Shown piece after piece: positions 5,381-13,329 of a stretch of DNA of 14,967 nucleotides. The DNA is from a virus: the UHGV virus genome UHGV-1809322; one strand, given 5' to 3'. Within the stretch, counting starts at the first letter, position 1. Every line of letters begins with the position of its first letter. Made by a program: the position numbers and the translations under genes. The notes under the pieces were generated by a model. It saw only the letters and a program-made list of their open reading frames with translations, ran no database searches and was not told the DNA's origin.

Positions 5381-6910
5381 TTACTTGGGGTTCTGAATTT
5401 GTGTATACGTTGCTCTTGAGATAAACGGCGCATTATCACCAATTGACGTGATTAATACCGTCGGTATGCCATTTTTCAACTCATCTTCTTTACCCAGCGT
5501 CCAGGTAATTACAGCCGTGTTGTTTGCGATTGGGATCGCATTCACGCCAGGGAGTTTAGGTATATTCGTTAGCAACTCATTGGCTTCAATTTCCGCCTGA
5601 GTCTTCACAGTAGTCCATTTACCTGAAACTTCGTCCACTCGTTCTTTTATGTCAGCCAATGCAGGAAATGCCTGCTCTGTTAATTTGCCTGCTGCGTCTT
5701 TTACATAGGGTATATCGGCAAGACAACTAACATTTCTGGCAGAAATACACCCCACCGTTTCCGCTGCAGTGCTTAAAGTGGGATTACCTTTTACAATCTC
5801 ATTCACCGAATTTTGCGCATCCTGAATGAGTACGTTGCCTGAGGACTTGAGGAATGCGTCAGTTATTGCCTGCTCATCACCACCAGCTGCAGCAACAGCA
5901 ACTCCGCCTACAGCGCCCGCAATGGCGGCTTTCTTGACGACCTCTGTGATTGTGCCTGTCGGCATACCATTAACAATAGAACCGCCTTGTTGTTGCACCG
6001 CCGCAAGAACACCTGCACGTATAGCGGCATTTATGTCACCGGTCATTCGCAGGGTTTTCCATGATGCAATGGCTGCCGCGCCAGCCGGTCCTCCATAAAA
6101 CGCGGCTGCAGACGTAGCAGCCATATCCAGGACGTGACTTTCCTGAGTTGCTTTGAAAAAATTATCTTCAGTATTATGAAGTGGTGCCACTGTAGTGGAC
6201 CAGATCGCATCAATTATTTTACCTTCACGGGCCTGATTCTCGGCTTTCTTCAATAACTCATACTGTGCACTCAATTCATTCCCAGCAAAGTGCGCAATAG
6301 CTGTACCAGCTTCAGTAATATCGTTAAAACTTCTTTGAGCTTGATTGCTAATGTCTTTCCACGCTTTGTCGTAAGTGCTGGCAATATCATCGAACGCTTT
6401 TACAAACGTTCTCGTTGCATTATCGACTGTTTTCTTAACCACTTCGATTTGGCGGCTTGTTTCGCCAACAACTATTTTAGACACGGCACCAACTGTGTCT
6501 TTAAATGGGTCCGTGCCACTATTAGAACCAAATACCTGATCCCAAGTAGGTAAATTGGGCAGATTCGGTAGATTGGGTAAGTTAGGTAAATTAGGTAGAT
6601 TAGGTAAGTTGGGCAGATTGGGTAATTTAGGGAGATTTGGTAGTTGAGGAAGACCAGGAATATCCGGGAGACCCAAAAGGCCAAATTTTTGCATCTGCTG
6701 CAGATGCATTCGCTCAGAGATATTGCTTTCTGTAGTCTGTGTTGGTTGTGGCTGCTGAGGTAGTGAAGCAGAGGAATAGGCATAACCTGGTGAGCATATG
6801 ATTGTTATATTTGGAATCATCACTGTTTTTGCATCCTCTGCAAATGATAATCCCGGCCCCAGCGCAAGAGCGATTGCACTTAACTGCATAAACCTGTTGG
6901 TACTTTTCAT
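5381..6910 (-). CDS. Secreted repeat-containing protein (509 aa): signal peptide, (Leu-Pro-Asn)n proline-rich tandem repeat linker, large C-terminal domain with Gly/Ala-rich hydrophobic segments
   Basis: SD GGGGAGGG ~9 nt upstream of the ATG. Signal peptide MKSTNRFMQLSAIALALGPGLSFA followed by EDAK. Repeat GLPDIPGLPQLPNLPKLPNLPNLPNLPNLPNLPNLPNLPNLPT. Hydrophobic Gly/Ala-rich stretches (ATSAAAFYGGPAGAAAIASW; KKAAIAGAVGGVAVAAAGG). Confidence 0.75.
   Translation of the reverse strand: MKSTNRFMQLSAIALALGPGLSFAEDAKTVMIPNITIICSPGYAYSSASLPQQPQPTQTTESNISERMHLQQMQKFGLLGLPDIPGLPQLPNLPKLPNLPNLPNLPNLPNLPNLPNLPNLPTWDQVFGSNSGTDPFKDTVGAVSKIVVGETSRQIEVVKKTVDNATRTFVKAFDDIASTYDKAWKDISNQAQRSFNDITEAGTAIAHFAGNELSAQYELLKKAENQAREGKIIDAIWSTTVAPLHNTEDNFFKATQESHVLDMAATSAAAFYGGPAGAAAIASWKTLRMTGDINAAIRAGVLAAVQQQGGSIVNGMPTGTITEVVKKAAIAGAVGGVAVAAAGGDEQAITDAFLKSSGNVLIQDAQNSVNEIVKGNPTLSTAAETVGCISARNVSCLADIPYVKDAAGKLTEQAFPALADIKERVDEVSGKWTTVKTQAEIEANELLTNIPKLPGVNAIPIANNTAVITWTLGKEDELKNGIPTVLITSIGDNAPFISRATYTQIQNPK
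6549..6647 (-). repeat. Imperfect 9-bp tandem repeat array (~11 units, GGYARRTTN on the + strand) encoding the (LPN)n tract of the 509-aa protein
   Basis: Consecutive units ggtaaattg, ggcagattc, ggtagattg, ggtaagtta, ggtaaatta, ggtagatta, ggtaagttg, ggcagattg, ggtaattta, gggagattt, ggtagttga. Most unit-to-unit differences are synonymous in the minus-strand frame. Confidence 0.9.
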
Positions 6911-7024
6911 GATAGCAATCCCTCCCCAACCCCGAATTCGAATGGTTTCTGCGGAGAAAATTTATAGCCGCATAAATAATAATTACGTCAGGGTATTTTC
7001 CATTCCATAATAAAAAACTCTTAT

Positions 7025-7054
7025 AAACACTAAGCGATTCAGACTTTAGTGTTT
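7025..7054. promoter_or_regulatory. 9-bp perfect inverted repeat (AAACACTAA-N12-TTAGTGTTT) in the divergent intergenic region; candidate operator
   Basis: Lies between the divergently oriented 509-aa gene (-) and the first structural-operon gene (+). ATTCAGAC occurs twice nearby (7037-7045 region and 7069-7077 region). Confidence 0.35.
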
Positions 7055-7126
7055 GCTTCACGCTCTCAATTCAGACCGGTGCATTTGCGTTAGCCTCAGT
7101 CAAAATTCACTGCTGGATCACACGTT

Positions 7127-7411
7127 ATGCCCTTCATCGGAATACAAGGCTCTCTGTGCTCAGGCCATGGAGGCTTCCCTCCCCGGCCCGCTCTTTCTGG
7201 TGCCCCTCTGGTAACCATCAACGGAATTCCCGCCCTGGTAAATGGCAACCCCTTCGCCGTACACAGTGACGGTGACAGCGCCCACGGTGGCGTAGCTATC
7301 TCATCGCGCCCCTGGTGCACAATAAACGGGATTGGCGTGGTCTGTACCGGGGATCTCGTGTCGTGTGGTTCTGTCGTCATAACTGGCGATCCACTGGTCA
7401 CCATTTCATGA
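7127..7411 (+). CDS. PAAR-like repeat protein (94 aa); putative spike-tip (sharpening cone) protein of a contractile tail or injection apparatus
   Basis: Small protein with the repeated pattern typical of PAAR domains: C.GHGG, PLVTINGIPAL, GDSAHGG, TINGIGVVCTGDLVSCGSVVITGDPLVTI. SD is weak. Confidence 0.5.
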   Translation: MPFIGIQGSLCSGHGGFPPRPALSGAPLVTINGIPALVNGNPFAVHSDGDSAHGGVAISSRPWCTINGIGVVCTGDLVSCGSVVITGDPLVTIS

Positions 7412-7426
7412 GTTTACGAGGCCACT

Positions 7427-8182
7427 ATGCTCGATCAGCAATACCAAATTGACGCGTTTTACGCATTACGGGCCGCTGGTGGGTTAAAAACCCCGGAGTC
7501 CATTACGCTGTATCAGTCATCTATCACTCAGATCAACCGGCTGGTGGATGCAACAGCGGCACTCACACCAGATTCAATCCGATACCCCGCCGCTATACGC
7601 CCACTGGTATCCCGCCTTGATGCCATATCTGAAGACCTGCTGGATTCAGTAAAGCAAATTAAAGAGGTGATAAAACTGCTACAGGACCAGTCTGACCCGT
7701 CGGCCCTGCTAACCATTCAGATCGGCTGGGAGGTGTATTGCCGGTTCAACGAACTGACCGCTAACCCCGCAATTGTTGCGTTCATCGCGGATACAGAACT
7801 CCCGCAATCCATACTGACGACACTCACCAGTTTGTCCACGGCAGACCTGAATGCGTCCTTTGCGGTCCTGAACAACACAGTAATAGCGGGTGAGGGTACG
7901 CCACTGTTTGAGGTTCCTGCCGATGTGCTTGATGCTGCAGTGGACGCAATAACCGAATTTGAAGGCGATGTTCAGTCATACCAGGAATTGCTGGTGGCCG
8001 TAGAACGGGAGAAACAGGCGGCATTGACCAGCATTCAGATAGCAATGAGCTATTTCCAGAACGGCGTCACAGTGAGCATCCTCGATACCCTCTCACACGG
8101 CACATTTGTAGCGCCAGCTGTTGCCTGCATCGTACCTCAGACCGTGCTTGATGCGCTCGCTGCAGGGACCGTAACGGCGTAA
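7427..8182 (+). CDS. Hypothetical protein (251 aa), predicted largely helical; structural-module protein of unknown function
   Basis: Start 16 bp after the PAAR-like stop, with a GAGG SD. Ala/Leu/Thr-rich composition. No recognisable catalytic motif. Confidence 0.55.
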   Translation: MLDQQYQIDAFYALRAAGGLKTPESITLYQSSITQINRLVDATAALTPDSIRYPAAIRPLVSRLDAISEDLLDSVKQIKEVIKLLQDQSDPSALLTIQIGWEVYCRFNELTANPAIVAFIADTELPQSILTTLTSLSTADLNASFAVLNNTVIAGEGTPLFEVPADVLDAAVDAITEFEGDVQSYQELLVAVEREKQAALTSIQIAMSYFQNGVTVSILDTLSHGTFVAPAVACIVPQTVLDALAAGTVTA

Positions 8183-8272
8183 CGCCATAACTCCCAGCGG
8201 TGCACTTTCTCTATTCTGCTCGCGTCTTGTGCGTTGAGCGATAACGCGAGTTTGAATAGAAAAGAGGCCATC

Positions 8273-10087
8273 ATGTCAGATATTACCCCATATATGGATC
8301 AGGTCGCGGATATTCGCCAACGCGCCGCCCGCGTGCTCGCGTTTGCCAGCATTCCGCAATTCAAAGAAGGTGCATTCATCAAGGATCGAAAAGCCTGGGC
8401 TAAATCGATCGGCGAAGCCACTCACATGGACCCCCTTTTTGAATCCTACGGTCCAATTGTTTCCACCATTGTTGGTACCGCGTGGGCAAGCGCCCTGGCG
8501 GATTACGCTAACGAACGAGGTGAAATGCCGCGCGACGAACTGCTCGCCGCAGCGCATAAGGCCACGGAAAACCTGCTTCTGGAAGGCGCAAGTAAGTACA
8601 AAAACCAGAGCGTGCAGCTGCTGCTTGAAAGCGCGCAGAAAGATCTGAACGAAAACAAATTCCTGTTTGAGTCTGCGGATTCAGCCAACATTCCGGATCT
8701 GACCACCAGCCAGGGCATTATGCAGCTGGCTACGTTTGTGGCCATGATCCTGCCCGTTGCGCTCGGCGCACAGACCAGCGATGCGTGTACATTCGTACCG
8801 TGTGAGAAAGACCAGAACAAAATCTTCGAAATCATCAATATCGCCGGTAACTCATTCGGTGACCTGACCGCCGGTCAGGAAATTGATATGACCACCTCTG
8901 GTTATTACTCCCAGATGGCCCGTGTTCGCCTGTTCGCTGCAGATCAGCAGCCGAAGGGGACCAAACAGCGTCTGACATTCAAAGTTGAGGAAAGTGAGGG
9001 CGTTAAAGCGCCAATTCGCCCGAAACGTACCGTTCTGTACATCAACCGCAAGCCGACTGACCCGGACACAGGCAATAACGTGCTACTGCACAGTTTTGTG
9101 CATGTTGATAAAGACACGGGCGAAGAAAGCTCCATCACCCTCACCTGCCAGATCAACTATGACACAGGTGAGATCGCAGTTAACCCGTCCAACCCGTTCC
9201 CGGAAGGTTATGAGCTTGGCGTCGGTTACGAGCTGGACGTTGAAAAAGCACCGTCCCTTATCCCGACGATCAACCACAAAATGAAGGACTACCTGATTTA
9301 TCCTTCATTCTACGCGCTGGCAGCTGAACACACGCTGATTGCAGAACTGGAAATGCGCCGTGAGTTCAACTTTGAGTTGAGTTCCCTGTCATACCGTAGC
9401 CTGCGTGATTACATCTCGCACGAAATCGACATGATGCGCCTGTCCATCATGATCTGGCGTTGCATTCACGGTAGTAGCTATGATGTCGCCCTGCCGGATA
9501 GCCAGTTGTTTGAAAGCTGGTCTGGCCTACTGCGCAGTAAATTCAACCGGATTTCCGCCGACATGATTGACCGCACCCGGACCACCGGCGTAACTGGCAT
9601 GTACGCAGGTTCTGAAGCGTCGAATTTCATCAAGGCATTGCCGCCGACACTGTTCCAGCCAGCCCCGAATTACCGCCAGACGCCATATGTCCATTTCACG
9701 GGCACGCTCTTCGGTGTCTACAAAGTATTTGAGGTGCCACAGCCAATCTGTACGTCGCTGACGAAAAACCTCAAGAAAAACGGTGCTGAATTCAAGACCA
9801 ACAACATCCTCTGCTATGGCCGTGGTGATGGTATCGCTCAGGCGGGCTTTATTGCCGGTGATGCCATTCCGTTGATCCCGCTGGTACACGACACCACCCC
9901 GCAACTGCGCAACCGTACCACCATGTTCGGCAGCGCATTGAACATGATTCACCCACGCCGTGGTGAAGACTATTTCGAAATGCTGGAACTGACGTTCGAC
10001 AAAGCAGGCGCACTGGATCCCCGAAGCGGGAAATACATTGAACCTGCTCCGACCCCGGAACCTGAAGAAGTCACTCAGGCACCGTAA
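8273..10087 (+). CDS. Large hypothetical virion-module protein (~604 aa)
   Basis: Track ORF begins at a TTG at 8234. The ATG at 8273 is preceded by AAAAGAGG at optimal spacing and is the more plausible start (MSDITPYMDQ…). Long uninterrupted ORF with a Pro/Glu-rich C-terminal tail (EPAPTPEPEEVTQAP). Confidence 0.65.
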   Translation: MSDITPYMDQVADIRQRAARVLAFASIPQFKEGAFIKDRKAWAKSIGEATHMDPLFESYGPIVSTIVGTAWASALADYANERGEMPRDELLAAAHKATENLLLEGASKYKNQSVQLLLESAQKDLNENKFLFESADSANIPDLTTSQGIMQLATFVAMILPVALGAQTSDACTFVPCEKDQNKIFEIINIAGNSFGDLTAGQEIDMTTSGYYSQMARVRLFAADQQPKGTKQRLTFKVEESEGVKAPIRPKRTVLYINRKPTDPDTGNNVLLHSFVHVDKDTGEESSITLTCQINYDTGEIAVNPSNPFPEGYELGVGYELDVEKAPSLIPTINHKMKDYLIYPSFYALAAEHTLIAELEMRREFNFELSSLSYRSLRDYISHEIDMMRLSIMIWRCIHGSSYDVALPDSQLFESWSGLLRSKFNRISADMIDRTRTTGVTGMYAGSEASNFIKALPPTLFQPAPNYRQTPYVHFTGTLFGVYKVFEVPQPICTSLTKNLKKNGAEFKTNNILCYGRGDGIAQAGFIAGDAIPLIPLVHDTTPQLRNRTTMFGSALNMIHPRRGEDYFEMLELTFDKAGALDPRSGKYIEPAPTPEPEEVTQAP

Positions 10088-10107
10088 TTCAGCGAAATAT
10101 TCACAGC

Positions 10108-10126
10108 GCCCCGGCAAGGTCGGGGC
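10108..10126 (+). promoter_or_regulatory. GC-rich stem-loop (GCCCCG-gcaaggt-CGGGGC) just upstream of the SD of the next gene
   Basis: 6-bp all-GC stem with a 7-nt loop in the 50-bp intergenic gap, immediately 5' of the AGGAG SD for the gene starting at 10138. No U-tract, so not a classical terminator. Confidence 0.3.
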
Positions 10127-10137
10127 CAGGAGAAATC

Positions 10138-11910
10138 ATGGAAATTCCGTTTAGTCAGTCAAATGTGAGTAATGTGTCAATTGCTCGTGTTAACGCCGAA
10201 AACACCACGATCCTGAATGCGGGCGGTAACAGTTCTGTATTTGCGGGTATTGTCGTGTGTAACAGTGGCACACCGTATGAAGTGCTGGAAATTAACAGTA
10301 CCAATTTGTATACCAAACTGGGTGTACCAGCGCATCCCACCGATGGTTATTGCGCTGAACCTATGCGCCATCTGGAAGAGGCAGTCACGGGTGGCAAGGG
10401 CTATGTTGTGCGAGTCACCGCAGCCGATGCTAAATTCCCGCTTCTGAAATGGTCGATGCCTGCGGCGTCTGAACCGGCCCAGCCGCAGAATCCGACGGCT
10501 GAAGGCGCTACCGAGGGTACCAGTGAAAATGCAGCAGAAACACCAATCGTTGAAACGCCGAAGCTGAAAAATTCCGGCAAAAAGACAACTGGTGGCGCGT
10601 TACTGAAAGCGGGATCTGATACTGAAACTGCAGGTCCAATCCCCTACGCTATTAACACGAGCGCACTGGAATACGGCGCTGATGTATCAGCTAATTTCAG
10701 CGAAAACGACATCGTAATGCTGTATGTCATTGACGGTAATCCGTCGACGACACGTAACGTTCGATTCACGCCGGACGCATTCAACGATAAGCGCCTGGTT
10801 CTGACACTGACGGAAACCAGTGCGCTTGGTGTAGTCACCACCCTCGATAGCTATACGGTATCTCTGTATACCGACGTAACCGATGATCACGGCTCCCCGG
10901 CCTGGATTGAAACGCAACTGGAGAGTAAATCCCGTTATCTGCGTGCCGTAGCGAAACCTAACCCGACGGGCGATTACGCTGATGCCACGGTCCGCCTGGT
11001 GGCAGATAAGGGCGCCACATTCTTTGTGGGTGGCACGAACGGTGATCAGAACAACATTCCTGCCGAAAATTATGGGCGGGCACTGAAGGCGCTTCGTAAT
11101 ACACAGGCATATTACTCTGCAATGCTGGGACTGGGCTGTTACAGCCGTGCGGTGCTCAATGAGTTGAGTGAAATTGCGCGCAACCGTCGTATTGACGCGT
11201 TTTTCGACATTGATCCACGCCTTTCGTATGCTGAAGCCCTGGAAAAGAGTGATGAATACAACTTCATGGATCATGAACACATCGCTTTCTATCACTTCCC
11301 GTACACCTACCGCGACAAAACATCAAAAGCGACAACGGTCGCCGGTTTGTCAGGCACCGCATTCAGAGCTAAGGCTGCTGGCGTTCAAAAAATCCCGAGC
11401 ATCGGCGGTTGGCATTACTCCCCGGCAGGTGAAGAGCGCGCCGTTATCAATCGCGACAATATGAAGTGCGCGTCCTGGGCGGGTGAACCCGACTACGACA
11501 TGATGTACATCAAACGCATCAATAAAGTCGCGACGTCCCGCACTGGCGTGATGACGATTGACGACTCGCTGACGGCCTATCGTCGCGAGAACAGCCTGCG
11601 CCTACAGCACGTCAACTCTACGATGAACGCCATCGCGCGCGACCTGTACACCCTGTGGGGTTCAATTAAACATGACCCTGACAACGAGGTGCTAAACAAT
11701 CTCACGCGCGATACTCCCCGAGTCTTCGATAGCTACGTCGCCAGTAAAGCCCTCGTGCCTCCAACTGAGGACACAGCTGGTAATACTGACCCGTACATCA
11801 TTTCCTACGAACAAAACACCGATGATATGTGGACCGTCACATACAGTTGCTGCGTGACCGGTACAGCCCGCCGCATCGCTGGTATTCCGATCCTGTTGAG
11901 AAAAGGATAA
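10138..11910 (+). CDS. Putative contractile tail sheath protein (590 aa); assignment tentative
   Basis: Strong SD (CAGGAGAAATC-ATG). The N-terminal region (…NVSIARVNAENTTILNAGGNSSVFAGIVVCNSGTPYEVLEINSTNLY…) resembles the small-residue pattern I recall at sheath N-termini. Size is in the sheath range. It sits in an operon with a PAAR-like gene. Confidence 0.45.
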   Translation: MEIPFSQSNVSNVSIARVNAENTTILNAGGNSSVFAGIVVCNSGTPYEVLEINSTNLYTKLGVPAHPTDGYCAEPMRHLEEAVTGGKGYVVRVTAADAKFPLLKWSMPAASEPAQPQNPTAEGATEGTSENAAETPIVETPKLKNSGKKTTGGALLKAGSDTETAGPIPYAINTSALEYGADVSANFSENDIVMLYVIDGNPSTTRNVRFTPDAFNDKRLVLTLTETSALGVVTTLDSYTVSLYTDVTDDHGSPAWIETQLESKSRYLRAVAKPNPTGDYADATVRLVADKGATFFVGGTNGDQNNIPAENYGRALKALRNTQAYYSAMLGLGCYSRAVLNELSEIARNRRIDAFFDIDPRLSYAEALEKSDEYNFMDHEHIAFYHFPYTYRDKTSKATTVAGLSGTAFRAKAAGVQKIPSIGGWHYSPAGEERAVINRDNMKCASWAGEPDYDMMYIKRINKVATSRTGVMTIDDSLTAYRRENSLRLQHVNSTMNAIARDLYTLWGSIKHDPDNEVLNNLTRDTPRVFDSYVASKALVPPTEDTAGNTDPYIISYEQNTDDMWTVTYSCCVTGTARRIAGIPILLRKG

Positions 11911-11914
11911 TCCG

Positions 11915-12691
11915 ATGAACAAGTTTGAAACCGGCGCTTTTCAGGCGCGCGCGCAAATGCTGGTGGAGGGAGCACTTCCAAAGGGGGAAATAACACCCCC
12001 TCCGCAGCCAGTAGTCCCCCTGCCGCGTACCCTGATCACTGAAGCTGATGCAGATAACGCACTGCTGAATATGTTGCTTGAGGCTGTAGCCAAGAAATCC
12101 AGCCAGGACGGACGTGGCGAAGCAGCAGCTGCCGTTCTGGAGTGGGCGGAATCGGGTGACGCGACATGGGATTCATTCGATTCAATAGCGTTCGGCATTG
12201 CGCTGGAGATGGAAGGCTTTGATCTGGACGAAGTGGGCGAGGATGACATCACAGAAGATGTTATCAGCACTTACAACGATGTCCTCGCTGACATGGCTGA
12301 CGCTGCAGTCTTCTTTGGTGCCTCCAGTAGCGATGTCGCAACAATGATTGACGAAGAGGACGACGATGCCGCCGCCAGCGTCATGAACAGCATCGGTGAC
12401 ATTGATGACGATGAAGCCGAAGACCTGATCACCACCTTTACTGTGGGAGACGATATCTATGAGTCTATCCGGAAAACAGAAACAGACGATAGTCAGATGC
12501 TTCTTGAAGCTACTAAAAAAGTTGTTCGAAACGGGAAAGTCAAACTGATCAAAAAACGTATTCGCCCGAAAAAACTCAACAGCGCCCAGCGTTCCGCACT
12601 GAAAAAGGCACGTCGCAAAGCCAATACCAGTGCAGCGAAAGTAAAGCGTAAAAAGTCGATGAAACTACGCAGAAAACGTTTCGGCGGCTAA
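11915..12691 (+). CDS. Bipolar protein (258 aa): strongly acidic central region and polybasic C-terminal tail; candidate scaffold, internal or DNA-binding virion protein
   Basis: Acidic runs (EEDDDAAAS…DIDDDEAEDL) followed by a C-terminal ~45 aa rich in Lys/Arg (KKRIRPKKLNSAQRSALKKARRKANTSAAKVKRKKSMKLRRKRFGG). Start is 4 bp after the preceding stop. Confidence 0.65.
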   Translation: MNKFETGAFQARAQMLVEGALPKGEITPPPQPVVPLPRTLITEADADNALLNMLLEAVAKKSSQDGRGEAAAAVLEWAESGDATWDSFDSIAFGIALEMEGFDLDEVGEDDITEDVISTYNDVLADMADAAVFFGASSSDVATMIDEEDDDAAASVMNSIGDIDDDEAEDLITTFTVGDDIYESIRKTETDDSQMLLEATKKVVRNGKVKLIKKRIRPKKLNSAQRSALKKARRKANTSAAKVKRKKSMKLRRKRFGG

Positions 12692-12697
12692 TGCATC

Positions 12698-12722
12698 TGC
12701 CACCAGTCTGAGGCTGGTGGCA
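12698..12722 (+). promoter_or_regulatory. Intergenic stem-loop (GCCACCAG-N7-CTGGTGGC) after the 258-aa gene; possible partial terminator, mRNA processing or stability element
   Basis: 8-9 bp perfect stem with a 7-nt loop, 7 bp after the stop codon, with no following T-run. The right arm contains a Chi octamer (GCTGGTGG). Confidence 0.3.
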
Positions 12723-12741
12723 ATTCAACGGGCGGATAGAT

Positions 12742-13317
12742 ATGGCGCAATACGGTGCGGTTTTCCCGGACGGGATTAGTGATTATCTGAAGTTGTACAT
12801 CACATCAGAAGATCTCTGCGTTGTCGGCTATATCGGCGAGGGTGCCTCGGCGCAACTGACAGCCAACTGGACCTCCCCTTATGAGGGGGATTCCGTCGGT
12901 TCAGTCGCGGGTGAAACATTTTCAAATCTGGTGCAGTCCATCACAAACCGGACGAGTGTTTCCCGACTGAACTCACTGATGGTGTGGCAAGGCTCGCAGC
13001 CGTTTGAATTTACCCTACCCGTTTATTTTCACGCTATTCATGACGCCAACATCGAAGTAAATGCGGCTATTGCGGCCCTGTGTGCGATGCAGGCTCCCCA
13101 ACTGAACGACACTATGCCATTGGGCCGGCGCCCTTATGTATGCACGCTCGACATAGGACGCAGATTCAAAATTGTTGATGTGGTTATCCAGAGTGTTGGT
13201 TTCGAACTGGATGCGCCACGTACTTCAGACGGTTACTACACGCATAACAACGTGAACCTGCAATGCAGTGCAATGGCCGTAACAAACCGTTCCGAAATGA
13301 AAAATTTATTTTTGTAA
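12742..13317 (+). CDS. Hypothetical structural-module protein (191 aa)
   Basis: Co-directional ORF in the operon, weak SD (GGAT). No recognisable motif. Confidence 0.55.
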   Translation: MAQYGAVFPDGISDYLKLYITSEDLCVVGYIGEGASAQLTANWTSPYEGDSVGSVAGETFSNLVQSITNRTSVSRLNSLMVWQGSQPFEFTLPVYFHAIHDANIEVNAAIAALCAMQAPQLNDTMPLGRRPYVCTLDIGRRFKIVDVVIQSVGFELDAPRTSDGYYTHNNVNLQCSAMAVTNRSEMKNLFL

Positions 13318-13329
13318 TGAGAGGTCACG

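Follow-up and report, generated by a model that had tools for sequence, protein, structure and literature searches.

The closest described counterparts of the gene analyzed here, a 94-codon open reading frame (ORF) at positions 7127-7411 (plus strand) of a 14,967-nucleotide stretch of the virus genome UHGV-1809322 (the window), are UpfC of phage P1 and gp5.4 of phage T4, together with the PAAR proteins of bacterial type VI secretion systems (T6SS). In the P1 spike complex resolved by cryo-electron microscopy (cryo-EM), trimeric gp5 carries monomeric UpfC in an arrangement that resembles T4 gp5/gp5.4, and UpfB, as three trimers, makes up a novel tripod fixed to the spike tip (PMC12810830; bioRxiv 2025.07.21.665459). 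UpfC had been matched to T4 gp5.4 by HHpred, and deletion of upfC had no effect on plaquing (Gonzales et al. 2022; PMC9024508); both upfC and upfB scored as non-essential in P1 in a genome-wide CRISPR interference (CRISPRi) screen (PMC10695390). The T4 tip protein gp5.4 is dispensable for assembly and needed for fitness, and it is required for DNA injection into deep-rough lipopolysaccharide (LPS) mutants; its apex holds a metal through three His residues and one Cys residue, and the H14A substitution abolishes spike binding (PMC12407873). Where a spike lacks an HxH motif, a separate protein is expected to form its tip (PMC12407873).

The product of the gene in the window is very probably the tip protein of the tail spike of a P1-like myovirus, one maintained as a phage-plasmid in Escherichia coli, and the genes divergent from it would be unrelated cargo. 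A first-pass annotation had proposed such a spike-tip protein, placed it at the head of a structural operon, and raised effector recruitment as a reason for its proximity to secreted-protein genes; the identification and the gene arrangement hold, and the recruitment proposal finds no support.

Membership in the UpfC orthologous group

The ORF begins with ATG, and its product contains 16 Gly, 3 His, and 5 Cys residues. Pfam PF05488 (PAAR_motif) is matched with 28.4 bits (gathering score 27, E 1.9e-6), and PHROG 281, annotated as PAAR motif, covers residues 1-93 at 1.1e-26; the profile searches suggested along with the original PAAR proposal thus return PAAR families. In tblastn searches of phage genomes, homologs are found in Cronobacter phage JK004 (60% identity), in P1, P7, and their relatives (UpfC, 56-57%), and in D6 (50%), with the 56% identity to P1 UpfC spanning the full length of the protein. 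Among PDB sequences, the UpfC entry 9vyi chain A ranks first (E 1.7e-32, residues 3-94), followed by the T6SS PAAR protein VCA0105 (4jiv_D, 1.6e-8) and T4 gp5.4 (4KU0 and 5IV5, 1.7e-4). Built from nine P1-family sequences, a profile matches gp5.4 over its full length at 1e-10. A word-indexed protein search returned five PAAR relatives, and a scan of IMG/VR yielded one P1-like relative only. On these similarities the protein can be assigned to the PAAR family and to the P1 UpfC orthologous group. The identification is correct and routine; NCBI already lists this exact sequence under the name 'PAAR domain-containing protein [Escherichia coli]'.

Conservation extends to a putative metal site. In an alignment of nine P1-family proteins, H14, H46, H53, C73, and C80 are invariant, and 25 invariant positions, all metal ligands included, persist across proteins that are 50-71% identical. 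Four of these, H14, H46, H53, and C80, fall opposite the His and Cys residues of gp5.4 in the family profile, and likewise opposite those of VCA0105. These four residues are therefore predicted to be the ligands of a three-His-one-Cys apical site. The 56% full-length identity to 9vyi_A further suggests a conical PAAR fold of three β-hairpins.

The gene is real and under purifying selection: 15 public contigs carry an identical protein sequence, and comparison with the orthologs of an Enterobacter kobei plasmid and phage D6 gives a ratio of nonsynonymous to synonymous substitution rates (dN/dS) of ~0.1, with dS saturated.

The likeness to P1 UpfC (P1_gp066) extends beyond the length of 94 residues and the invariant His, Cys, and Gly residues, since an UpfB gene lies downstream in both elements and the genomes of both encode a gp5 spike, a gp23 capsid protein, and a gp22 sheath. 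The surroundings differ, however: in P1, upfC is divergent from uhr-hrdC-dmt and replication/partition genes lie between upfB and gene 23, whereas in the window the upfB homolog runs directly into the capsid gene and the upstream neighbor is an inserted accessory segment. With T4 gp5.4, the protein shares a single PAAR domain of ~95 residues, the aligned metal site, and, by homology, the predicted form of a cone and the state of a monomer on a trimeric β-helical spike; the similarity is nonetheless far weaker than to P1 UpfC, as the single-sequence E value shows. No UpfB-like tripod has been reported for T4. The T4 spike protein gp5 also has a lysozyme domain, which is absent from P1-type gp5 (PMC12810830).

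T6SS PAAR proteins (VCA0105 and c1882; PDB 4JIV and 4JIW) share PF05488 and the aligned motifs GFPP.P, IPA..GD, and CG. The PAAR motif of VCA0105 is aligned to P35-A-L-V at one PAAR-like motif, and the second PAAR motif is degenerate (G70-V-V-C against PAAR). In contrast to the T6SS proteins, the window protein is encoded in the context of a phage virion and not of a secretion system, falls below the NCBIfam T6SS equivalog cut-off, and lacks an effector extension. Pfam scans of the protein and its neighbors gave no effector extension, toxin domain, or adaptor gene (DUF4123, DUF1795, DUF2169). Judged by its domain content, it is not an effector-carrying T6SS PAAR protein.

The gp5 partner and the structural gene array

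As the first-pass annotation stated, no VgrG/gpV-like spike is present in the window, where none of the 15 main ORFs matches the gpV/VgrG family. The search for a spike gene in a fuller genome, which it recommended, leads to a 96-kb E. coli contig (L003), which shares 98% identity with the window and has exactly the same PAAR protein. This contig carries a 288-residue ORF at 242-1108, preceded by a gp6-like hub fragment, with 49% identity to P1 gp5 and 65% to an E. kobei protein named 'phage baseplate assembly protein V'. The gp5 homolog stops ~2 kb short of the left edge of the window, ~9 kb upstream of the PAAR gene, and gene 5 of P1 is likewise ~9 kb from upfC. The apparent lack of a spike is an effect of the window edge. 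The C-terminal β-helix of the gp5 homolog contains no HxH motif and no His residue, which fits the need for a separate tip protein.

At 288 residues, compared with 210 in P1, the gp5 homolog is the longer protein, and the excess consists of β-helix repeats of the TGMNT, TGLNT, and TGINT type. The spike needle would accordingly be longer than that of P1.

The PAAR gene is the first of nine co-directional ORFs separated by short gaps (7127-14950), in agreement with its proposed place at the head of a plus-strand structural operon. The upfC-upfB adjacency is found in every relative examined, namely P1, D6, JK004, the E. kobei plasmid, and one IMG/VR contig. The ORF of the capsid protein, taken mechanically, begins at TTG 8234 (617 residues). 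The ATG at 8273, which is preceded by a good ribosome-binding site and agrees with the gene calls of 603-604 residues on sister contigs, is the likely start. The genes downstream of the sheath gene (Table 1) are collinear with the E. kobei plasmid.

Taken together, these similarities mark the window as a section of an E. coli phage-plasmid of the P1-like type. At the DNA level, two E. kobei plasmids come closest among public sequences (~74% identity), and their genes follow the same order from the PAAR gene on. Megablast of the window yields a single 150-bp match among phages and no match among complete E. coli genomes.

Table 1. Features of the window and their assignments
Feature	Coordinates	Strand	Evidence or remark
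Probable PAAR spike-tip protein, P1 UpfC ortholog, 94 aa	7127..7411	+	Pfam, PHROG, PDB, alignments
UpfB homolog, 251 aa	7427..8182	+	BLASTP to P1 UpfB 28%, E 2e-24; PHROG 1559, 1.4e-40
Major capsid protein, P1 gp23 homolog, 604 aa	8273..10087	+	45% to gp23, E 4e-180; PHROG 1014, 5e-153
Tail sheath, P1 gp22-like	10138..11910	+	PHROG 1036 'tail sheath', 6e-118
PHROG 1053 protein, PmgG-like, tail tube, PmgC-like, second tube-like protein	11915..14950	+	PHROG 1053, 1114, 1120, 1851, 1842, each E 4e-52 or better
Dmt-type double methyltransferase	82-2316		
4.3-kb segment replacing 292 bp of the E. kobei relative	2770..7073		blastn
Antirepressor-like gene	3084-3887	-	Inserted segment
162-aa gene	3884-4372	-	Inserted segment
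197-aa Sec-exported protein, predicted Tse1/Tae1-type peptidoglycan amidase fold	4758..5351	-	Accessory cargo
509-aa Sec-exported protein, PNL hexapeptide repeats	5381..6910	-	Accessory cargo
Divergent intergenic region	6911..7126		Only ~7074-7126 shared with the E. kobei relative; rest belongs to the inserted segment

Two further features of the element lie apart from the spike. The length of the Dmt gene varies among copies that are otherwise 97-98% identical (785 residues at 2788-5145 in L003 and 872 residues at 2572-5190 in the sister contig L004), and window positions 424-657 and 925-1047 within it do not align to L003, which suggests that its central region is variable, possibly affecting specificity. 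A Tad2-like gene (PF11195, anti-Thoeris) is located just 3' of the tube genes on sister contigs (11380-11838 in L005 and 10756-11214 in L006), ~1.4 kb past the right end of the window.

The inserted segment and its secreted-protein genes

The PAAR gene faces the secreted-protein genes, as described in the first-pass annotation, with 216 bp separating it from the start of the 509-residue gene on the opposite strand. The breakpoints of the inserted segment are defined by blastn against the E. kobei plasmid (L002), in which window positions 2330-2769 correspond to 4001-4437 and window positions 7074-7487 to 4730-5133.

Both secreted proteins carry N-terminal Sec-type signal peptides, which were read from the sequence and are kept in homologs. 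The 509-residue protein matches no Pfam family, and its own family is widespread on proteobacterial plasmids and chromosomes. Some eight PNL hexapeptide repeats span roughly residues 82-120 of the protein, and its ~360 C-terminal residues form a conserved domain, also without a Pfam family; members of the family often occur in plasmid regions that hold PsiA, H-NS, Hha, or SRAP genes.

The assignment of the 197-residue protein is structural. Its AlphaFold2 (AF2) model (pLDDT 78, pTM 0.79) matches the Tse1 fold in Foldseek with an E value of 2e-5 and a target-normalised TM of 0.73-0.77. Sequence matches in the PDB are weak and restricted to Tse1, with the histidine motif GHVALVIPG against GHVAVVISG. 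Tse1 of Pseudomonas aeruginosa is delivered by a T6SS. Unlike Tse1/Tae1, the 197-residue protein has a Sec signal peptide, and its family rides on plasmids and phage-plasmids. No Tsi1-like immunity gene was recognised, the window contains no T6SS genes, and PADLOC gave no defense-system match among six proteins (those of the four inserted-segment genes, the PAAR protein, and the UpfB homolog). A search for Sec-exported Tae1 homologs brought up nothing pertinent.

The E. kobei plasmid encodes a homologous pair (489 and 195 residues) ~19 kb from its PAAR gene, adjoining the gp26-gp5 baseplate operon and a tyrosine recombinase. A scan of genome contigs for the 197-residue family found three loci; elsewhere the family pairs with unrelated large secreted proteins or stands alone. 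In Acinetobacter baumannii (L018/L019, 5212-7639 and 9209-14005), a Tae1-like homolog is paired with an unrelated Cys-rich secreted protein of 606 residues, 1.6 kb upstream of a VgrG-DUF4123 effector island. On the 367-kb chromosomal contig JACW01000005.1 of GCA_000568175.1 (L016), a truncated PAAR gene at 5021-5191 (minus strand) retains the first 56 codons (62% identity). It is connected to the same intergenic region (81% identical) and to a cassette encoding proteins of 515 and 197 residues, and a fragment of a tyrosine recombinase lies next to this junction. Most simply, this locus would be a remnant descended from a phage-plasmid of the window type.

The first-pass annotation had described a perfect palindrome in the shared intergenic region. 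An inverted repeat is present there at 7025-7054, 20 bp from the junction and inside the inserted segment, but it is interrupted by 12 nucleotides (AAACACTAA-N12-TTAGTGTTT) and is weakly unusual: an arm of at least 9 bp occurs in 31 of 2000 shuffles of the intergenic region (1.6%) and in 15 of 137 window tiles of the same size (11%), and the z-score of its RNA fold is -1.5. It is found only in near-identical copies and is absent upstream of the E. kobei, JK004, D6, and P1 genes; in L016, which holds the only diverged copy of this intergenic region, the right arm of the repeat is not kept. A role as a conserved operator is unsupported on all these counts. The window contains no match to the operator consensus of P1 C1. 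Upstream of the E. kobei PAAR gene, at L002 4682-4704, a GC-rich hairpin and the T run behind it (AAAGCCACC-TTTTG-GGTGGCTTT-TTTC) resemble an intrinsic terminator and sit where the window has the 4.3-kb insertion.

The juxtaposition raises the possibility of a functional link between the PAAR tip and the divergent module, with the amidase and the 509-residue protein as spike cargo, accessories, or co-regulated products, by analogy with T6SS PAAR proteins that carry effectors. The recurrence of the PAAR/cassette junction in L016, the E. kobei cassette abutting the baseplate operon, and the related A. baumannii pair near a VgrG-DUF4123 island speak for such coupling, which is still quite unlikely. 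The Sec signal peptides imply that both proteins leave the cytoplasm, where the virion is assembled; their genes lie on the other strand; and the PAAR protein is a minimal domain of 94 residues with no adaptor gene nearby. In the closest relative, the segment is missing at this site and the cassette occupies a different one, and what lies upstream of upfC varies with the lineage: P1 and JK004 have uhr-hrdC-dmt there, D6 has partition genes, and E. kobei has a 53-residue gene with dmt. No homolog of PAAR, VgrG, or gp5 was detected by tblastn in the 7-20 kb around eight further loci with one or both cassette genes. The tip-bound partner in P1 is UpfB, the amidase occurs elsewhere alone or with an unrelated large protein, and the L016 junction is explained by descent of a single fragment. 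A looser tie to the puncturing device, for instance a peptidoglycan-cutting accessory that is co-regulated with the PAAR-gp5 spike or acts alongside it, would account for the cassette's place at the head of spike or baseplate operons (two P1-like elements) and close to the VgrG island of Acinetobacter, and is similarly improbable. Effector recruitment thus does not account for the arrangement: the inserted segment is not part of the spike apparatus, and its secreted-protein genes are unrelated accessory cargo.

Weighing the spike-tip assignment

Several observations weigh against the assignment to a P1-type spike tip. The PF05488 score barely exceeds the gathering threshold and is marginal, although it is backed by the PHROG 281 match across residues 1-93. 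NCBIfam T6SS_PAAR_dom aligns residues 8-93 with 48.7 bits against a cut-off of 124; this shortfall argues against a T6SS-type PAAR protein and not against PAAR as such. The AF2 model of the protein has a pLDDT of 42 from an alignment five sequences deep, and the fold assignment accordingly draws on sequence identity to solved structures. The spike ORF is located on a sister contig, outside the window itself. Neither a sigma-70-like promoter nor a terminator was found in a scan of 6800-8300, and the P1-type late-promoter box (derived from LP23 and LP26) has no match in the relevant intergenic regions. UpfC was undetected in the P1 virion proteome (PMC9024508). Finally, placement at the tail tip has been shown by cryo-EM for P1 and is a prediction for the window element. 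What the comparisons establish at the sequence level is orthology, conserved ligands, and conserved partners.

Because the tip protein is non-essential in P1, the ORF might instead be a decaying or non-functional remnant that drifts freely. The lack of a plaque defect after deletion of P1 upfC (PMC9024508) or its knock-down by CRISPRi (PMC10695390) is compatible with this, as is the truncated copy of 56 codons in L016. Such decay is nevertheless very unlikely, given that the window gene is full length, that an identical protein recurs on 15 contigs, that dN/dS is ~0.1, and that the metal ligands are among the 25 invariant positions kept across proteins of 50-71% identity; in T4, moreover, gp5.4 is needed for fitness and for infecting mutants that have deep-rough LPS (PMC12407873). 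It is extremely unlikely that the gene is a bacterial T6SS PAAR gene on a mobile element, serving a host VgrG rather than a phage spike, since, despite the matches to the T6SS structures 4jiv and 4jiw and the alignment to T6SS_PAAR_dom, that model stays far below its cut-off, the best matches are all P1-family phage proteins, the gene heads an array of capsid, sheath, and tube genes, the element encodes its own gp5 spike, and T6SS genes are missing from the window.

As a P1-type spike tip, and by extension from the P1 and T4 structures, one copy of the PAAR protein would fold as a small cone with its apex held by a metal ion and would bind the blunt end of the trimeric gp5 β-helix. The tip would sharpen the membrane-piercing end of the tail and carry three UpfB trimers (the 'tripod'). 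By analogy with P1 and T4, the gene is probably dispensable for laboratory plaque formation, yet it probably aids penetration on some hosts.

The finding confirms a routine annotation and places the element in the P1 family, in which UpfC, UpfB, and gp5 have already been resolved by cryo-EM. For curators, the ORF at 7427-8182 can be named as an UpfB-like tripod protein, the start of the capsid gene can be set to 8273, and the missing spike can be attributed to the edge of the window. Of some wider interest is the putative Sec-exported peptidoglycan amidase of the Tse1/Tae1 fold, whose small cassette is spread by plasmids and phage-plasmids. A type VI toxin in such a self-exported form poses the questions of how its producer survives and what purpose the enzyme serves.
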